A stretch of 22,377 bases of DNA from a virus, in the UHGV virus genome UHGV-0172060; one strand, written 5' to 3'. Position 1 is the stretch's first letter, and each line of letters opens with the position of its first letter. The notes under the pieces were generated by a model, which did no database searches, had not been told where the DNA came from, and was given only the letters and a program-made list of their open reading frames with translations. The position numbers were made by a program, and so were the translations under genes. This document shows positions 4,942 to 9,340 of this stretch, in pieces.

Positions 4942-5634
4942 TTAATTGTGTCGCTTAAGGGTTTGTGACTGACTGATTAAGACCTTTCCAAAGACCATAA
5001 ACCGGTGTTCGTTTTCGCTGGTAATTCCCCATTCGCGGTAAATCTGATTATCAGAAATTACCAGCAGTTTATCAGGTATCATTTGCAGTCGTTTGACGTA
5101 AATTTTATCATCAAAACCAAATACATATATACCATCCCCATCAAACTGATTGATACTGATATCAACGAAGATGAGATCTCCTGGCTCAATGGTTGGACAC
5201 ATACTGTCCCCACGAACGTTGATAACTTTAATGTGATTTGCTGGTCGTCCACCAAACATCGATACAGCATTATCAGTTCTGTATTCAATGGCATGAATCA
5301 CATCAATGACATCACCGCCCTGGATAAGGCCATTTCCCGCACTGGCACTGACATCCAGCATTTCAATACGGAATACATCCTTCACCTGCGCAACATCCTC
5401 ACTAATACTGTTTTTACATACAGTATTACTTTTGAGGTCTGAGGTAAAGAGATCAGCAATATCAACACCTAAGCTCCTGGCAATATTACTCAGGGCTTGT
5501 TCAGTGAATTGTTTCTGCTTACCTGTTTCGAGGCGCGAGATATTCGCCGCATCCACTCCTATTGCTTCAGCGAGATCGGCGATTTTCATGTTCTTCGCCT
5601 GGCGAAGTTGTCTGACTCGATTTCCTATGTTCAT
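4942..5634 (-). CDS. cI-like prophage repressor (XRE HTH + S24 LexA-like peptidase domain)
   Basis: N-terminal HTH (RQLRQAKNMKIADLAEAIGVDAANISRLETGK); C-terminal S24 signatures (GDSMCPTI serine, VKRL lysine); divergent from a cro-like gene. Confidence 0.9.
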   Translation of the reverse strand: MNIGNRVRQLRQAKNMKIADLAEAIGVDAANISRLETGKQKQFTEQALSNIARSLGVDIADLFTSDLKSNTVCKNSISEDVAQVKDVFRIEMLDVSASAGNGLIQGGDVIDVIHAIEYRTDNAVSMFGGRPANHIKVINVRGDSMCPTIEPGDLIFVDISINQFDGDGIYVFGFDDKIYVKRLQMIPDKLLVISDNQIYREWGITSENEHRFMVFGKVLISQSQTLKRHN

Positions 5635-5731: not shown

Positions 5732-5992
5732 ATGCAATCACCATTACGGAATGTGCGTAAGGCGCACGGATTTACTTTGCAGCATGTTGCTGCGGGCGTT
5801 CAGGTCAATCCAGCGACGCTGAGTCGTATTGAAAGACTGGAACAAATTCCATCTATCGATCTTGCAGAACGTCTGGCCAATTTTTTTAAGGGTGAAATCA
5901 GCGAAATGCAGATTCTTTATCCGGCACGTTTTCAATCTAGCCAAAACCAGAATGGGTTTAAACCACAGGAACAGGAGGTAAGCCGTGGGTAA
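5732..5992 (+). CDS. Cro-like XRE-family HTH regulator
   Basis: 86-aa HTH protein (GFTLQHVAAGVQVNPATLSRIER) transcribed divergently from the repressor; GGAGG SD. Confidence 0.8.
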   Translation: MQSPLRNVRKAHGFTLQHVAAGVQVNPATLSRIERLEQIPSIDLAERLANFFKGEISEMQILYPARFQSSQNQNGFKPQEQEVSRG

Positions 5993-6536
5993 GCATCATT
6001 GGAAAGTGGAAAAACAACCTGAGTGGTACGTGAAAGCTGTCAGAAAAACTATCGCGGCATTGCCAGGGGGTTACGCTGAAGCTGCTGACTGGCTGGATGT
6101 AACAGAGAACGCTTTATTCAACCGCCTTCGTGCAGATGGCGATCAGATTTTCCCGTTGGGATGGGCAATGGTTTTACAGCGTGCTGCTGGCAATCACCAC
6201 ATTGCGGATGCTGTCGCACAGTCTGCTGGTGGGGTGTTTGTATCACTTCCTGAAATTGAGGAAGTAGAGAACGCCGATATCAACCAGCGCCTGCTGGAGG
6301 TCATTGAACAGATCGGCAGTTATTCCAGACAGATTCGTTCAGCAATTGAAGACGGGGTGGTGGAACCACACGAGCAGGCAGCAATTAACGACGAGCTGTA
6401 CATGTCAATTTCGAAGCTGCAGGAGCATGCAGCACTGGTCTACAAAATCTTTTGCGCTCCAGAAAAGAGTGACGCCCGCGAGTGTGCAGCTCCGGGCGCC
6501 GTGGCGTTTTGTGTCTGTGGAGAAACTAACGCATGA
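5985..6536 (+). CDS. CII-like/YdaT-family early regulatory protein (putative)
   Basis: 183-aa ORF with GTG start and AGGAGG SD, overlapping the end of cro; its position after cro matches the CII/YdaT slot of lambdoid and Rac-type prophages. Family assignment tentative. Confidence 0.5.
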
Positions 6537-6871
6537 ACAGTTTAACAACACACTACCGTCGCTCGCAACTGATTGCGCTTCCTGTACCGGGTGGAAAAGC
6601 GAAGGTGGAGTATTGCTATGCAGTGAATGTACCAGGTGACAGGGAAATTGTAACCCACAGCTTTGCAGAGTGGGCTGTGGGTGATTTCAACCGGCAGAAG
6701 GAGACAGTCCTTTGCGACAAGTTAACCGCTGGTTCAAAGATCACTACGGAGTGCCCGTCAGAGTCATTCGTTGGGAGCCGGAAACACAACGGGTTATCTA
6801 CCTCCGTGAAGGCTATGAACATGAATGCTTCAGTCCGCTCGAACAGTTTCGTCGTAAATTCAGGGAAATAG
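6533..6871 (+). CDS. hypothetical protein (ORF A; N-terminal half looks protein-like, C-terminal half looks out of frame)
   Basis: ATGA-coupled start at 6533, ends 9 nt before the O-like start; the C-terminal ~50 aa are Ser/Asn-rich and overlap a better-looking ORF in another frame. Confidence 0.35.
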
Positions 6872-6924
6872 AGGTCGGTCATGAGCCTGTTAATGACATC
6901 CCAGCCCATTGTGATAAATCGTGA
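6712..6924 (+). CDS. hypothetical small protein (ORF B, GYEHEC-motif protein)
   Basis: TTG start with near-ideal SD (AAGGAGA, 7-nt spacer); protein-like composition ([33 protein letters not shown]); overlaps ORF A and the O-like start. Confidence 0.45.
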
Positions 6925-7873
6925 TCTTGCATGCCGTATTGGTCTGAATGAGGCAATTGTGTTGCAGCAGCTTCATTACTGGCTGAATGAAACGAATTCA
7001 GGCACTGAGCATGGCGGAATTCGCTGGGTTTATAACACGACAGAACAGTGGCTGGAGCAGTTTCCGTTCTGGTCAGAGTCCACTCTGAAACGCACATTTG
7101 CAAGCCTGAAATCACTTGGGGTTTTGCGTCGCGAGCAACTCAATAAATCGAAGCGTGACATGACCAACTTCTACACGATCAACTATGAAAGTGAGCTTTT
7201 AGAAGAGGTCAAAGTGAACGAATCGATCAGGTCAAAATGCACTTCTCCATCGGGTCAAAGTGACCTGATGGATGGGCGCAAAATGACACGATCCATTGGT
7301 TCAAAACGACACGCTGTCATCGGGTCAAAATGGCCCAATGATCTTACAGAGAATACAACAGAGATTACTACAGAGAATAAAACCTCTTCTCGTCCGGACG
7401 CTTCGCAACCGGACACGCAAACGGCTGAACAGGAGTTTTTTACTCGCCATCCTGATGCGGTTGTATTCAGCCCTAAAAAGCGCCAGTGGGGAACGCAGGA
7501 TGATTTGACCTGCGCACAGTGGCTCTGGAAAAAAATCATCGCCCTGTACGAGCAGGCCGCCGAATGTGACGGCGAGGTGGTTCGTCCCAAAGAACCGAAC
7601 TGGACAGCCTGGGCAAACGAAATTCGCCTGATGTGTGTGCAGGATGGTCGTACTCACAAACAAATCTGCGAGATGTACAGCCGCGTCAGCCGCGATCCGT
7701 TCTGGTGCCGTAACGTGCTCAGCCCGTCGAAGTTGCGGGAAAAATGGGATGAGCTTTCCCTGCGCTTATCGCCGTCCGTCAGCACGCACACAGAAAAACG
7801 TGAAGACCCGTACTTCAAAGCCAGTTACGACAACGTGGACTACAGCCAGATCCCGGCAGGATTCAGGGGGTGA
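6881..7873 (+). CDS. replication initiator protein (lambda O-like) with origin iterons embedded in the coding sequence
   Basis: N-terminal DNA-binding-like region ([26 protein letters not shown]); central low-complexity linker encoded by direct repeats; GAGGT SD. Confidence 0.7.
   Translation: MSLLMTSQPIVINRDLACRIGLNEAIVLQQLHYWLNETNSGTEHGGIRWVYNTTEQWLEQFPFWSESTLKRTFASLKSLGVLRREQLNKSKRDMTNFYTINYESELLEEVKVNESIRSKCTSPSGQSDLMDGRKMTRSIGSKRHAVIGSKWPNDLTENTTEITTENKTSSRPDASQPDTQTAEQEFFTRHPDAVVFSPKKRQWGTQDDLTCAQWLWKKIIALYEQAAECDGEVVRPKEPNWTAWANEIRLMCVQDGRTHKQICEMYSRVSRDPFWCRNVLSPSKLREKWDELSLRLSPSVSTHTEKREDPYFKASYDNVDYSQIPAGFRG
7205..7390. repeat. candidate replication origin: about five iterons at ~23-bp spacing plus three 12-bp ACAGAGA A-rich repeats
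   Basis: Iterons (a/g)TC(g/a)GGTCAAA(a/g)TG centred near 7210, 7233, 7256, 7302, 7326; then ACAGAGAATACA / ACAGAGATTACT / ACAGAGAATAAA at 7346, 7358, 7370. Confidence 0.65.
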
Positions 7874-7875
7874 TC

Positions 7876-8364
7876 ATGAGTCTTTTGAATGAAGTTCAGA
7901 AATTCATTGAAGCCCATCCGGGGTGTACTTCCGGAGACATTGCGGATGCTTTTGCAGGTTACTCACGGCAGCGCGTTCTGCAGTCAGCAAGCAAGTTACG
8001 TCAGAGTGGGCGTGTGGCTCACCGTTGTGAAGGAGATACACGCAGACATTTCCCACGCCTGACTGAGAGAGCGCAGGAGCCGGAACCACAACCAGTTCGT
8101 GAAACCAGACCTGTGCGCAATTTCTATGTCGGCACTAACGATCCCCGGGTGATTTTGTGCCTGACTCGCCAGGCGGAAGAACTGGAGTCCAGGGGCCTAT
8201 ACCGTCGTGCTGCAACGGTGTGGATGGCGGCATTCCGTGAAAGCCACTCCCAGCCAGAACGAAACAATTTTCTGGTGCGTCGTGAGCAGTGTTTACGGAA
8301 AAGCAGCAAGCGCGCTGTATCGGGTGATGAGTGGTATCTGTCAGGGAATTACGTGGGGGCTTAA
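7876..8364 (+). CDS. putative regulator with C-terminal PerC-like domain
   Basis: ATG 7876 with GGGGGTGA SD; C-terminal LTRQAEELESRGLYRRAATVWMAAFRE...VRREQCL matches the recalled PerC-family signature (LE..GL.RRAA..W...RR..CL). Confidence 0.5.
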   Translation: MSLLNEVQKFIEAHPGCTSGDIADAFAGYSRQRVLQSASKLRQSGRVAHRCEGDTRRHFPRLTERAQEPEPQPVRETRPVRNFYVGTNDPRVILCLTRQAEELESRGLYRRAATVWMAAFRESHSQPERNNFLVRREQCLRKSSKRAVSGDEWYLSGNYVGA

Positions 8365-9017
8365 TGAGTAATAAATATTGCCAGGAGCTGGTGGAACTGC
8401 GGAACAAACCAGCCCATGAACTGAAGGAAGTGGGTGATCAGTGGCGCACGCCGGACAACATTTTCTGGGGAATTAACACCCTGTTTGGCCCGTTTGTTCT
8501 GGATCTGTTCACTGACGGTGATAACGCCAAATGTACCGCGTATTACACGGCGGAAGACAACGCGCTGGCGCATGACTGGTCAGAACGCCTTGCGGAGCTT
8601 AAAGGTGCTGCCTTTGGTAATCCTCCATACAGCCGCGCCAGTCAGCATGAGGGGCAATACATCACCGGCATGCGTTACATCATGAAACATGCCAGTGCCA
8701 TGCGTGATAAGGGCGGGCGCTATGTTTTCCTGATCAAAGCTGCCACCAGCGAAGTGTGGTGGCCGGAAGATGCAGATCATATTGCTTTTATTCGCGGGCG
8801 TATTGGTTTTGAACTGCCTGTCTGGTTTATCCCGAAAGACGAGAAGCAGGTACCGACAGGAGCTTTTTTCGCTGGTGCTATTGCTGTTTTTGACAAGACC
8901 TGGAAGGGATCGGCAATCAGCTACATCGGGCGCGATGAACTTGAGGCATGTGGTGAGGCGTTTCTGGCGCAGGTTCGCCAGCAGGCGGAAAAACTGGTCA
9001 GGGAGATGGCGGCATGA
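8364..9017 (+). CDS. phage Dam-like N6-adenine DNA methyltransferase (orphan)
   Basis: FGNPPYS catalytic motif (NPPY); ~217 aa; TAATG-coupled start with GGGGG SD; no adjacent restriction endonuclease. Confidence 0.75.
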   Translation: MSNKYCQELVELRNKPAHELKEVGDQWRTPDNIFWGINTLFGPFVLDLFTDGDNAKCTAYYTAEDNALAHDWSERLAELKGAAFGNPPYSRASQHEGQYITGMRYIMKHASAMRDKGGRYVFLIKAATSEVWWPEDADHIAFIRGRIGFELPVWFIPKDEKQVPTGAFFAGAIAVFDKTWKGSAISYIGRDELEACGEAFLAQVRQQAEKLVREMAA

Positions 9018-9340
9018 CGACATTAACTCAATGCCAGCAGCAGGTGCTGGATATGCTGATTTCTTATCAGAAAGAGCGTGGCTTTCCGCCAACCAATCAG
9101 GAGGTGGCAACCATGCTGGGATACCGTTCAGTGAATGCAGCGGTGGAGCATCTTCGCGCACTGGAGAAAAAAGGCGTCATCACGATAAAGCGTGGCGTGG
9201 CCCGGGGGATAACGCTTCATACCGCGGTGAAGGACGACGACAGCGAGGCGGTCGGGATTATCCGCGCACTGCTTGCCGGTGAGGAAAACGCAAGGCTGCG
9301 TGCAACCCACTGGTTACATGAGAGGGACCTGAAAGTATGA
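9014..9340 (+). CDS. LexA N-terminal DNA-binding-domain homolog lacking the S24 peptidase domain
   Basis: Residues 1-70 align closely with the LexA DNA-binding domain (LT..QQ.V.D.I......G.PPT..E.A..LG.RS.NAA.EHL.AL..KGVI.I..G..RGI.L); the protein stops at 108 aa with no protease domain. Confidence 0.75.
   Translation: MTTLTQCQQQVLDMLISYQKERGFPPTNQEVATMLGYRSVNAAVEHLRALEKKGVITIKRGVARGITLHTAVKDDDSEAVGIIRALLAGEENARLRATHWLHERDLKV

Follow-up and report, generated by a model that had tools for sequence, protein, structure and literature searches.

The virus genome UHGV-0172060, analysed here as one strand of 22,377 nucleotides (nt; hereafter the window), includes the immunity and replication region of a lambdoid, e14-like Escherichia coli prophage. 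In the early rightward operon of this region, two open reading frames (ORFs) use the same DNA in different frames. ORF A (6533–6871, plus strand) is ymfM and encodes 112 amino acids. ORF B (6712–6924, plus strand) encodes a 70-residue DUF4222 protein of the RgdR family. We conclude that the pair is very probably a genuine out-of-frame gene overlap that is maintained by selection. Across the 160 nt that are coding in both frames (6712–6871, plus strand), ORF B is selected on its amino acids and the frame of ORF A (frame A) is free of stop codons. Both partner genes are individually known. As a pair, they join the overprinted genes of phages, with an unusually clean signature of selection.

The original prediction had placed the two ORFs at these positions, with overlaps of 160 nt between them and 44 nt between ORF B and the O-like replication gene (ATG at 6881). 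All of this can be read from the sequence. Two readings were then offered: a frameshift that had fused or split a gene, or a genuine nested small gene. Homology searches with both translations, which had also been proposed, identified ORF A as YmfM (PHROG 1170) and ORF B as DUF4222. The nested gene is the reading that we adopt; ORF B, a conserved DUF4222 gene that stands alone, has a Shine-Dalgarno (SD) sequence and start codon of its own, and ORF A is ymfM.

The two ORFs encode YmfM and a DUF4222 protein

ORF A runs from an ATG at 6533 to a TAG at 6869–6871. The ATG shares the sequence ATGA (6533–6536) with the TGA of ymfL, which agrees with the translationally coupled start proposed at the outset. 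The likely SD sequence, as read from the DNA, is GGAG at 6519–6522 (plus strand), 10 nt 5' of the ATG. The product is identical to that of b1148 from E. coli K-12 at 108 of 112 residues; each gene has 112 codons and the two align without insertions, deletions or gaps. The K-12 annotation of b1148 is ‘cell division inhibitor YmfM’. ORF A matches PHROG 1170 across residues 1–112 (E = 1.2e-69), and homologues of 102–128 amino acids were found down to 46% identity. The position of ymfM is also shared with K-12: it follows the CP76-type CII gene ymfL, and precedes the replication gene, in an early operon controlled by cI and cro.

The segment that belongs to ORF A only (6533–6711, plus strand) encodes the conserved N-terminal domain of YmfM (~60 amino acids), which is under purifying selection and has stand-alone homologues. 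For residues ~10–54, AlphaFold2 (AF2) predicts strands and a helix with modest confidence (predicted local distance difference test, pLDDT, ~58–70). The pLDDT of the C-terminal tail is 33–43, consistent with a disordered segment. Residues 19–50 of YmfM (6587–6682) also gave repeated weak matches to β-hairpin repeats (Pfam Flg_new and DUF7507) in very large surface proteins. We judged this similarity to be at the level of a motif, probably a shared strand-turn-strand, and did not use it as evidence of homology.

ORF B begins with a TTG at 6712, ends with a TGA at 6922–6924 and is in the −1 frame relative to ORF A. Its SD sequence, described beforehand as near-ideal, is AAGGAG at 6698–6703 (plus strand), 8 nt 5' of the TTG and inside the Gln-Lys-Glu codons of ORF A. 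The closest upstream stop in the frame of ORF B (frame B) is a TGA at 6682–6684 (plus strand). This confines any switch of frame to 6685–6711, a run of 27 nt that is open in both frames. The protein matches Pfam PF13973 (DUF4222) with an E-value of 1.5e-18 and 66.5 bits, against a cut-off of 27; residues 2–53 align with model positions 3–52 of 53. The accession given by the Prokaryotic Genome Annotation Pipeline (PGAP) is WP_001250270.1. All columns that are invariant in an alignment of 30 members are present in the core of ORF B (V16, R27, I29, Y30, R32, G34, Y35, C39, P42 and F50). Stand-alone homologues of 55–70 amino acids, with 60–84% identity, occur across the Enterobacterales. The fold predicted by AF2 is a small β-barrel (pLDDT 78).

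The signals for starting ORF B were compared in 26 representative lineages. Most have an SD sequence of the GGAG, GGAGG or AGGGG type 8–14 nt 5' of the start; two loci of the Pantoea/Mixta type have just a GGG run. The start codon is ATG, GTG or TTG and is kept at the same position across loci. The upstream stop in frame B lies 3–66 nt before the start, the distance varying by lineage.

Selection in the two reading frames

We compared the window with K-12. In the part specific to ORF A there is a single substitution, which is synonymous in ORF A. In the overlap, all four substitutions occur at third positions of ORF B, which are second positions of ORF A. Codon-position profiles were then derived from the closest pairs among 90 loci. 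In the ORF A-only part, differences at frame A positions 1, 2 and 3 amounted to 0.004, 0.005 and 0.047; by this comparison, purifying selection on frame A is clear in this segment. The corresponding values for positions 1, 2 and 3 of ORF B in the overlap were 0.004, 0.003 and 0.062. Four-fold degenerate sites of ORF B in the overlap, set against those of the ORF A-only part, gave 0.066 versus 0.068, 0.276 versus 0.148 and 0.605 versus 0.376. Second positions of ORF A in the overlap change at the four-fold-site rate of the non-overlapping part. Because substitutions in the overlap sit on third positions of ORF B, and accumulate at this rate, the profiles indicate that the tail of ORF A is under no detectable amino acid constraint.

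The composition of the tail leads to the same view. Together, Ser, Thr, Ala, Gly, Asn and Pro make up 52% of its residues. This fraction, 0.52, compares with 0.50 ± 0.06 in random recodings of ORF B, of which only versions with an open frame A were kept. Measured against this expectation, we found no selected composition in the ORF A tail. The tail is rich in Ser because it is DUF4222 read in the +1 frame. Doubt had been raised over the C-terminal half of ORF A on account of this composition; that doubt was well placed, as the half is not selected on its amino acids and its composition is a by-product of ORF B.

Stop codons tell a different story from amino acids. For a stop to form in frame A, an ORF B codon must have T at position 2 and A or G at position 3, and be followed by A or G at position 1 of the next codon. 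Codons for Val, Leu and Ile in ORF B that precede a codon starting with A or G never end with A or G (~360 codon instances in 74 distinct sequences). Before C or T, the same alignment columns use GTG, GTA, CTG and ATA freely. Thus, Val column 15 is encoded before A by GTC (43 times) or GTT (once), and before C by GTC (18), GTG (3), GTT (6) or GTA (2). Leu column 30 is CTG in 46 of 72 cases, and Ile column 28 is ATA in 35 of 74. We also selected 21 lineage representatives, with at least 30% of the third positions in ORF B differing between them. At the stop-prone sites of these lineages, stop-making codons were found 0 times in 98, against 38.7 expected from local codon usage (Fisher p = 2.7e-9 for the comparison with safe contexts).

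For the sequence of the window, frame A would stay open along the full overlap with a probability of 0.078, conditional on the ORF B protein and on local codon usage. An exact calculation for 75 distinct overlaps gave a mean of 0.059 and a range of 0.016–0.168. Since these probabilities are low, yet the frame is open in essentially every related locus, frame A is open beyond chance. DUF4222 genes that are not overlapped provide a control. Stand-alone DUF4222 loci (L156, L158, L160, L161, L168 and L185) each have 3–4 stops in the +1 frame. Among 28 distinct non-overlapped DUF4222 genes, retrieved with the YmfM N-terminal domain, 24 have at least one stop and the median is 3. Taken together, the comparisons indicate that frame A is actively kept stop-free across the overlap. 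We infer that frame A is translated into the overlap and, from the avoidance of stops, through it.

Conservation of the overlap

A 601-nt stretch of the locus recurs without a single difference in 11 further complete E. coli genomes, and has matches in 2709 of 5426 genomes. Among ~190 distinct loci in the Enterobacterales, nearly all have an overlap of 160–169 nt. Loci were retrieved with ORF B alone, which avoids favouring those with an intact ORF A. The search yielded 31 loci from contigs representing one genome per species (GTDB) and 80 viral contigs. The GTDB loci come from Citrobacter, Enterobacter, Raoultella, Atlantibacter, Kosakonia, Buttiauxella, Leclercia, Pantoea, Mixta and other genera. 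Frame A is open for 160–169 nt in all 31 GTDB loci, and in 94 of 95 distinct sequences. In L041, the one exception, there is a frameshift upstream. The +1 frame, counted from ORF B, stops at one common position of the alignment; the third frame closes quickly. Distant DUF4222 subfamilies, with ~45% identity to ORF B and GTG start codons, have the same arrangement. For loci of the overlap type retrieved with the YmfM N-terminal domain, frame A is open in 32 of 32.

Several natural variants were seen. In L144 (match at 1501–1665), DUF4222 has a stop at codon 12 and the ymfM frame is kept. In L199 (2001–2237), an internal deletion has removed ~40 DUF4222 codons, and the ymfM frame still ends at the usual place beside the start of the replication gene. 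In view of this deletion, we rejected L199 as an architecture with YmfM and no DUF4222. L200 was likewise set aside, as a prophage deletion junction. Rare alleles have a one-base insertion or deletion near 6683–6690 (P0059, P0065, P0063, P0066, P0077 and L041). Some of these fuse the N-terminal half of YmfM to DUF4222, making 118–119 amino acids; others cut YmfM to 63 amino acids, ending 13 nt into DUF4222. In L145 (1355–1696), and also in L146–L148, an unrelated upstream ORF of 113–128 amino acids crosses the entire DUF4222 gene in the +1 frame and enters the replication gene. This arrangement could be either a second, independent overprinting or chance.

Modular arrangement and origin of the pair

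An exhaustive profile-free search with YmfM residues 1–62 returned stand-alone homologues of 59–68 amino acids with 42–64% identity. The loci found with this domain are of several types. A short gene for the domain (56–68 amino acids), with DUF4222 ~700–830 nt downstream, is present in 28 distinct loci. The long overlap, here of 162–168 nt, is found in 32. In three loci the short gene stops ~20 nt into DUF4222, which is in the other frame, and in seven there is no DUF4222 nearby. The gene order in L202 is cro, CII, the YmfM N-terminal domain (67 amino acids), a KilA-N/ANT (antirepressor-type) gene and DUF4222. Where DUF4222 occurs without YmfM, as in L158 and L160 (1483–1659), it comes after an antirepressor-like gene and is joined to the replication gene by an ATGA. 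Judging from these arrangements, the overlap may have arisen when the short ymfM gene began reading into DUF4222, probably after loss of an intervening gene.

In every context that we examined in detail, a gene of the DUF4222 family lies immediately 5' of a replication gene, be it O-like, of the Phg_2220_C type or a P4 primase. The two are usually joined by ATGA or a short overlap. This placement of DUF4222/RgdR genes hints at a role in expression of the replication module.

The junction with the replication gene

The replication gene of the window is in the same frame as ORF A. The junction (6869–6883, plus strand) reads TAG-AGGTCGGTC-ATG, and comprises the stop of ORF A, a GAGG at 6871–6874 and the O-like ATG 9 nt after the stop. 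In our survey of the 26 representative lineages, a replication gene could be located in 24. The ORF A stop lies 0–9 nt upstream of the replication ATG in 23 of these 24, and 11 nt after the ATG in the other. The ORF B stop is found between +1 and +89 nt relative to the replication start.

These positions suggest how the region may be translated. Ribosomes arriving from ymfL would restart at the ymfM ATG, through the ATGA overlap, and produce the folded N-terminal domain of ~60 amino acids. The same ribosomes would read on in frame A over DUF4222, adding a tail of ~50 amino acids, predicted to be disordered, whose sequence is free to vary. They would terminate at the TAG at 6869–6871, 9 nt before the O-like ATG. 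A second set of ribosomes would initiate inside ymfM, at AAGGAG-N8-TTG (6712), and make the 70-amino-acid RgdR-family DUF4222 β-barrel in the −1 frame.

Why frame A should be kept open is less certain. We put at slightly under even the chance that it is kept open so that ribosomes coupled from ymfL to ymfM can reach the start of the replication gene, a form of translational coupling. A more specific proposal is that the 53-codon tail of ymfM is a ‘translated bridge’. The absence of stops would be its sole selected property, ribosomes being carried over the nested gene and released 9 nt before the replication ATG. We regard this as possible and, on balance, unlikely. Were it true, the act of translating the tail, and not its peptide, would be the function. 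Coupling of either kind meets three objections. In many lineages ORF B also stops near the replication start (+1 or +8 nt) and could couple alone. The ORF A stop keeps its place in part because the C-terminus of ORF B is conserved. Finally, folds of 6830–6910 and 6850–6900 revealed no significant RNA structure that would hide the ribosome-binding site of the replication gene (z = −0.9 to +1). Folds of 6670–6740 and 6500–6560 were also no better than shuffles (z = −0.9 to +1), and gave no sign of a structure hiding the ribosome-binding site of ORF B.

Alternative explanations

A frameshift mutation, or an error of assembly, might have split one ancestral gene, made up of the N-terminal half of YmfM and DUF4222, or else have fused two, so that the fusion is the real protein. 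Fusions in frame do exist; P0059 (118 amino acids) and P0065 (119 amino acids, 14 member sequences) join YmfM residues 1 to ~53 to a full DUF4222 by a one-base insertion. They are rare, the largest fusion cluster having 14 member sequences compared with 1295 in the main YmfM cluster. We rejected an error of sequencing or assembly because the two-frame form recurs unchanged in 11 further complete E. coli genomes. We also rejected a frameshifted pseudogene, as the two-frame form is the norm in relatives and fusions are rare variants. The arrangement is conserved across genera, and through heavy synonymous divergence, and DUF4222 retains its own SD sequence and start at a fixed position, with the frame B stop 3–66 nt before that start. 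In other phages the two modules are separate genes, ~700–830 nt apart. Hence, the frameshift considered in the original prediction did not survive comparison with relatives, and we hold it to be extremely improbable. Programmed −1 ribosomal frameshifting, with the fusion of the YmfM N-terminal domain to DUF4222 as a regulated second product, fares little better and is very improbable. In its favour, ORF B is in the −1 frame, the 27 nt at 6685–6711 are open in both frames and the natural fusion alleles show that a fusion protein can be encoded. Against it, no X_XXY_YYZ heptamer is present in the zero frame within 6685–6711, the fold of 6670–6740 is not better than shuffles (z = −0.85) and ORF B has its own conserved SD sequence and start. 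Moreover, the doubly open run is only 3–6 nt in L007, L117, L021 and L026. The initial view that such frameshifting is unlikely, for want of a slippery heptamer, is strengthened by the frame B stop that lies 3 nt before the ORF B start in some lineages.

A third possibility is that only DUF4222 matters in the overlap, either because ORF A beyond ~6712 is neutral read-through, open by luck, or because ORF A is no gene. The tail is without amino acid constraint, has a low-confidence, disordered prediction and a composition fully explained by the ORF B sequence, PGAP leaves ORF A unannotated, and an open +1 frame is expected by chance in ~6–14% of DUF4222 sequences. Further points weigh against our own conclusion. 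A sceptic could call a tail without amino acid constraint non-functional, and it is stop avoidance alone that argues otherwise. Four of the 28 non-overlapped DUF4222 genes have a +1 frame that is open by chance. Given the few phages with a ~20-nt overlap, long read-through is not obligatory for either gene. The joint probability of an open frame, ~1e-11 for nine lineages in which at least 40% of the third positions in ORF B differ (near-saturated), overstates their independence, the lineages being related and mosaic. The case that both products are expressed here is built on the comparison of sequences. Set against neutral read-through is the clear purifying selection on frame A in the ORF A-only part, a segment that also has homologues standing alone; it follows that ribosomes must be reading frame A when they reach the overlap. 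In addition, stop-making synonymous codons are missing from 98 of 98 prone sites in the 21 lineages, and are used by the same columns in safe contexts. Control DUF4222 genes with no YmfM upstream carry ~3 stops in frame A. We consider neutral read-through improbable. Alternatively, the overlap is genuine and frame A is open because YmfM needs a disordered C-terminal extension of about this length, as a degradation tag, as a spacer or to damp a toxic N-terminal domain. Stop avoidance on its own fits either reason for an open frame, the tail is predicted to be disordered and ORF B could supply the coupling alone. Overprinted frames typically encode fast-evolving, disordered regions, and other division inhibitors of phages and the SOS response are controlled by proteolysis; SulA is degraded by Lon. 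Conversely, the stand-alone homologues of the N-terminal domain (56–68 amino acids) have no tail, second codon positions of ORF A change at the synonymous rate, the composition of the tail is not shifted from the neutral expectation and, in the overlap-type lineages examined, the end of ORF A tracks the ATG of the replication gene. A required extension is conceivable and, in our estimation, rather unlikely. An overlap maintained by selection, with frame A held open, remains the reading that we prefer.

Implications for annotation and for SfiC

Annotation of the locus is divided. The curated K-12 annotation has ymfM but lacks the DUF4222 gene. For all of the top-scoring E. coli genomes, PGAP gives a ‘DUF4222 domain-containing protein’ and no ymfM. 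Phage records are mixed in their treatment of the two.

The gene for SfiC, a second SOS-linked division inhibitor of E. coli, went without identification for ~35 years, and ymfM is the current candidate. YmfM (b1148) of the K-12 prophage e14 was proposed to be SfiC by Ansari et al. (bioRxiv 10.1101/2020.11.19.390815). Filamentation and loss of the Z-ring were demonstrated with the ymfM ORF in pBAD24, ymfM deletions and library fragments spanning ymfL' to ymfN'. The preprint treats ymfM as a gene with a single product; it describes neither start-codon or frame-specific mutants nor a tagged protein (bioRxiv 10.1101/2020.11.19.390815).

The cloned K-12 ymfM ORF includes the AAGGAG, the TTG and codons 1–53 of the 59 codons of DUF4222. 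These 53 codons correspond to essentially the whole Pfam domain and predicted fold. Because the ymfM ORF holds the SD sequence, the start and 53 of 59 codons of DUF4222, the published ymfM clones and deletions also alter the DUF4222 gene. In the literature searched, we found no link between ymfM and DUF4222 or RgdR, and no mention of a nested gene. The published experiments leave both YmfM and DUF4222 as candidate inhibitors of the Z-ring, the YmfM N-terminal domain being considerably the likelier of the two. Some of the SfiC filamentation now attributed to YmfM, or even all of it, could be due to the nested DUF4222 protein. The practical consequence is for annotation, and for the interpretation of SfiC and YmfM.

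The two products can be separated by single-base substitutions that leave the protein of one frame unchanged. Thus, C6718T is silent in ORF A (Asp62, GAC to GAT) and converts DUF4222 Gln3 from CAA to TAA. The combination of T6712C with a change of CAGAAGGAG to CAAAAAGAA is also silent in ORF A (Leu; Gln-Lys-Glu) and removes the start and SD sequence of ORF B. In the other direction, T6723A is silent in ORF B (Val4, GTT to GTA) and converts ORF A Leu64 from TTA to TAA, giving YmfM(1–63). Adding 1,197,289 to these positions gives those of K-12 MG1655. More generally, the locus is a clean natural case of an overprinted frame held open without amino acid constraint, with stand-alone versions of both genes as built-in controls.

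Comparison with known systems

The e14 ymfM gene of K-12 has the same neighbours, ymfL on the 5' side and a replication gene on the 3' side, and the same internal DUF4222 frame. It differs downstream, where K-12 has the chimeric ymfN/oweE and the window has an intact O-like gene. The DUF4222 protein is 70 amino acids here, compared with 59 in K-12, because the downstream replication modules differ.

Two overprinting systems of phages invite comparison. The spanin genes Rz and Rz1 of lambda are the classic embedded, out-of-frame pair of phage genes, both expressed from one mRNA. As here, a larger gene of a lambdoid phage contains a small one that has its own start and a different frame. Unlike ORF B, which runs past the ORF A stop, Rz1 is wholly within Rz. 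The overlapping peptides of Rz and Rz1 are both constrained partners, whereas the overlapped part of ORF A avoids stops and is without amino acid constraint. Overprinting of the type seen in phiX174, where E lies within D, is similar in that a newer frame covers an older conserved gene, with biased composition, poor conservation and predicted disorder. The difference is that the overprinted peptide of phiX174 is a functional product; here, the sole selected property detected is openness up to the start of the next gene. The tight junctions at both ends of ORF A (ATGA, and a stop, 9 nt and an ATG) resemble those typical of translational coupling by termination and reinitiation, a likeness of geometry read from the DNA.

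For DUF4222, the closest studied protein is RgdR (ECs1581). Passages in Flockhart et al. (2012, PMC3378721) describe RgdR as a small prophage regulator, in enterohaemorrhagic E. coli (EHEC) O157:H7, of LEE1 and the type III secretion system, and of motility. According to these passages, activation of LEE1, repression of motility and DNA binding are known only for RgdR and close variants. No filamentation is described for RgdR in the passages (PMC3378721). We found that RgdR matches DUF4222 (E = 2e-23, 82 bits), and that ORF B, of the same Pfam family, shares 41% identity with RgdR over 49 residues. Both genes adjoin the replication gene of their element; that for RgdR is ATGA-coupled to a P4-type primase gene (L201, 3720–4019). 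RgdR is longer, at 99 amino acids; it is extended at both its N- and C-termini and has an RGD motif, which is missing from ORF B. It is also located in a P4-like element with no overlapping upstream ORF.

Neighbouring genes and other ORFs

Upstream of the pair are a gene for a cI-like repressor (4942–5634, minus strand), a cro-like gene, between the repressor gene and ymfL, and ymfL itself (5985–6536, plus strand). The last encodes a CII-like activator of the CP76 type, with matches to Pfam Phage_CP76 (E = 5e-16) and PHROG 101, ‘CII-like transcriptional activator’ (E = 4e-72); the PGAP name is ‘protein YmfL’. Downstream, the O-like replication initiator gene (6881–7873, plus strand) matches PHROG 391, ‘replication initiation O-like’ (E = 6e-101). 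It is followed by a PerC-like gene, a Dam-type methylase gene, a gene for a LexA DNA-binding domain and rusA. We found no match to Rfam anywhere in the window.

Two further ORFs intersect the pair. An antisense ORF of 97 amino acids (6616–6909, minus strand) lies codon-for-codon opposite ORF B, and looks like an ordinary shadow ORF of a conserved gene. An ORF of 111 amino acids in the third frame, with a TTG start (6304–6639, plus strand), extends from the last part of ymfL into the first part of ymfM. It is also open, in shortened form, in K-12 and is probably spurious.

The PerC-family activator gene (7870–8364) has a GTG start that overlaps the stop of the O-like gene (GTGA). By its position, this would be a further link in a chain of tightly coupled early genes. 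The LexA gene (~9014–9340, plus strand) is small, encodes the DNA-binding domain only and is named ‘LexA repressor’ (108 amino acids) by PGAP. As a phage-encoded, non-cleavable LexA-like protein, its product could influence SOS control. The gene recurs 3' of the methylase gene in related prophages (L114, 5148–5354; L115, 4895–5215).

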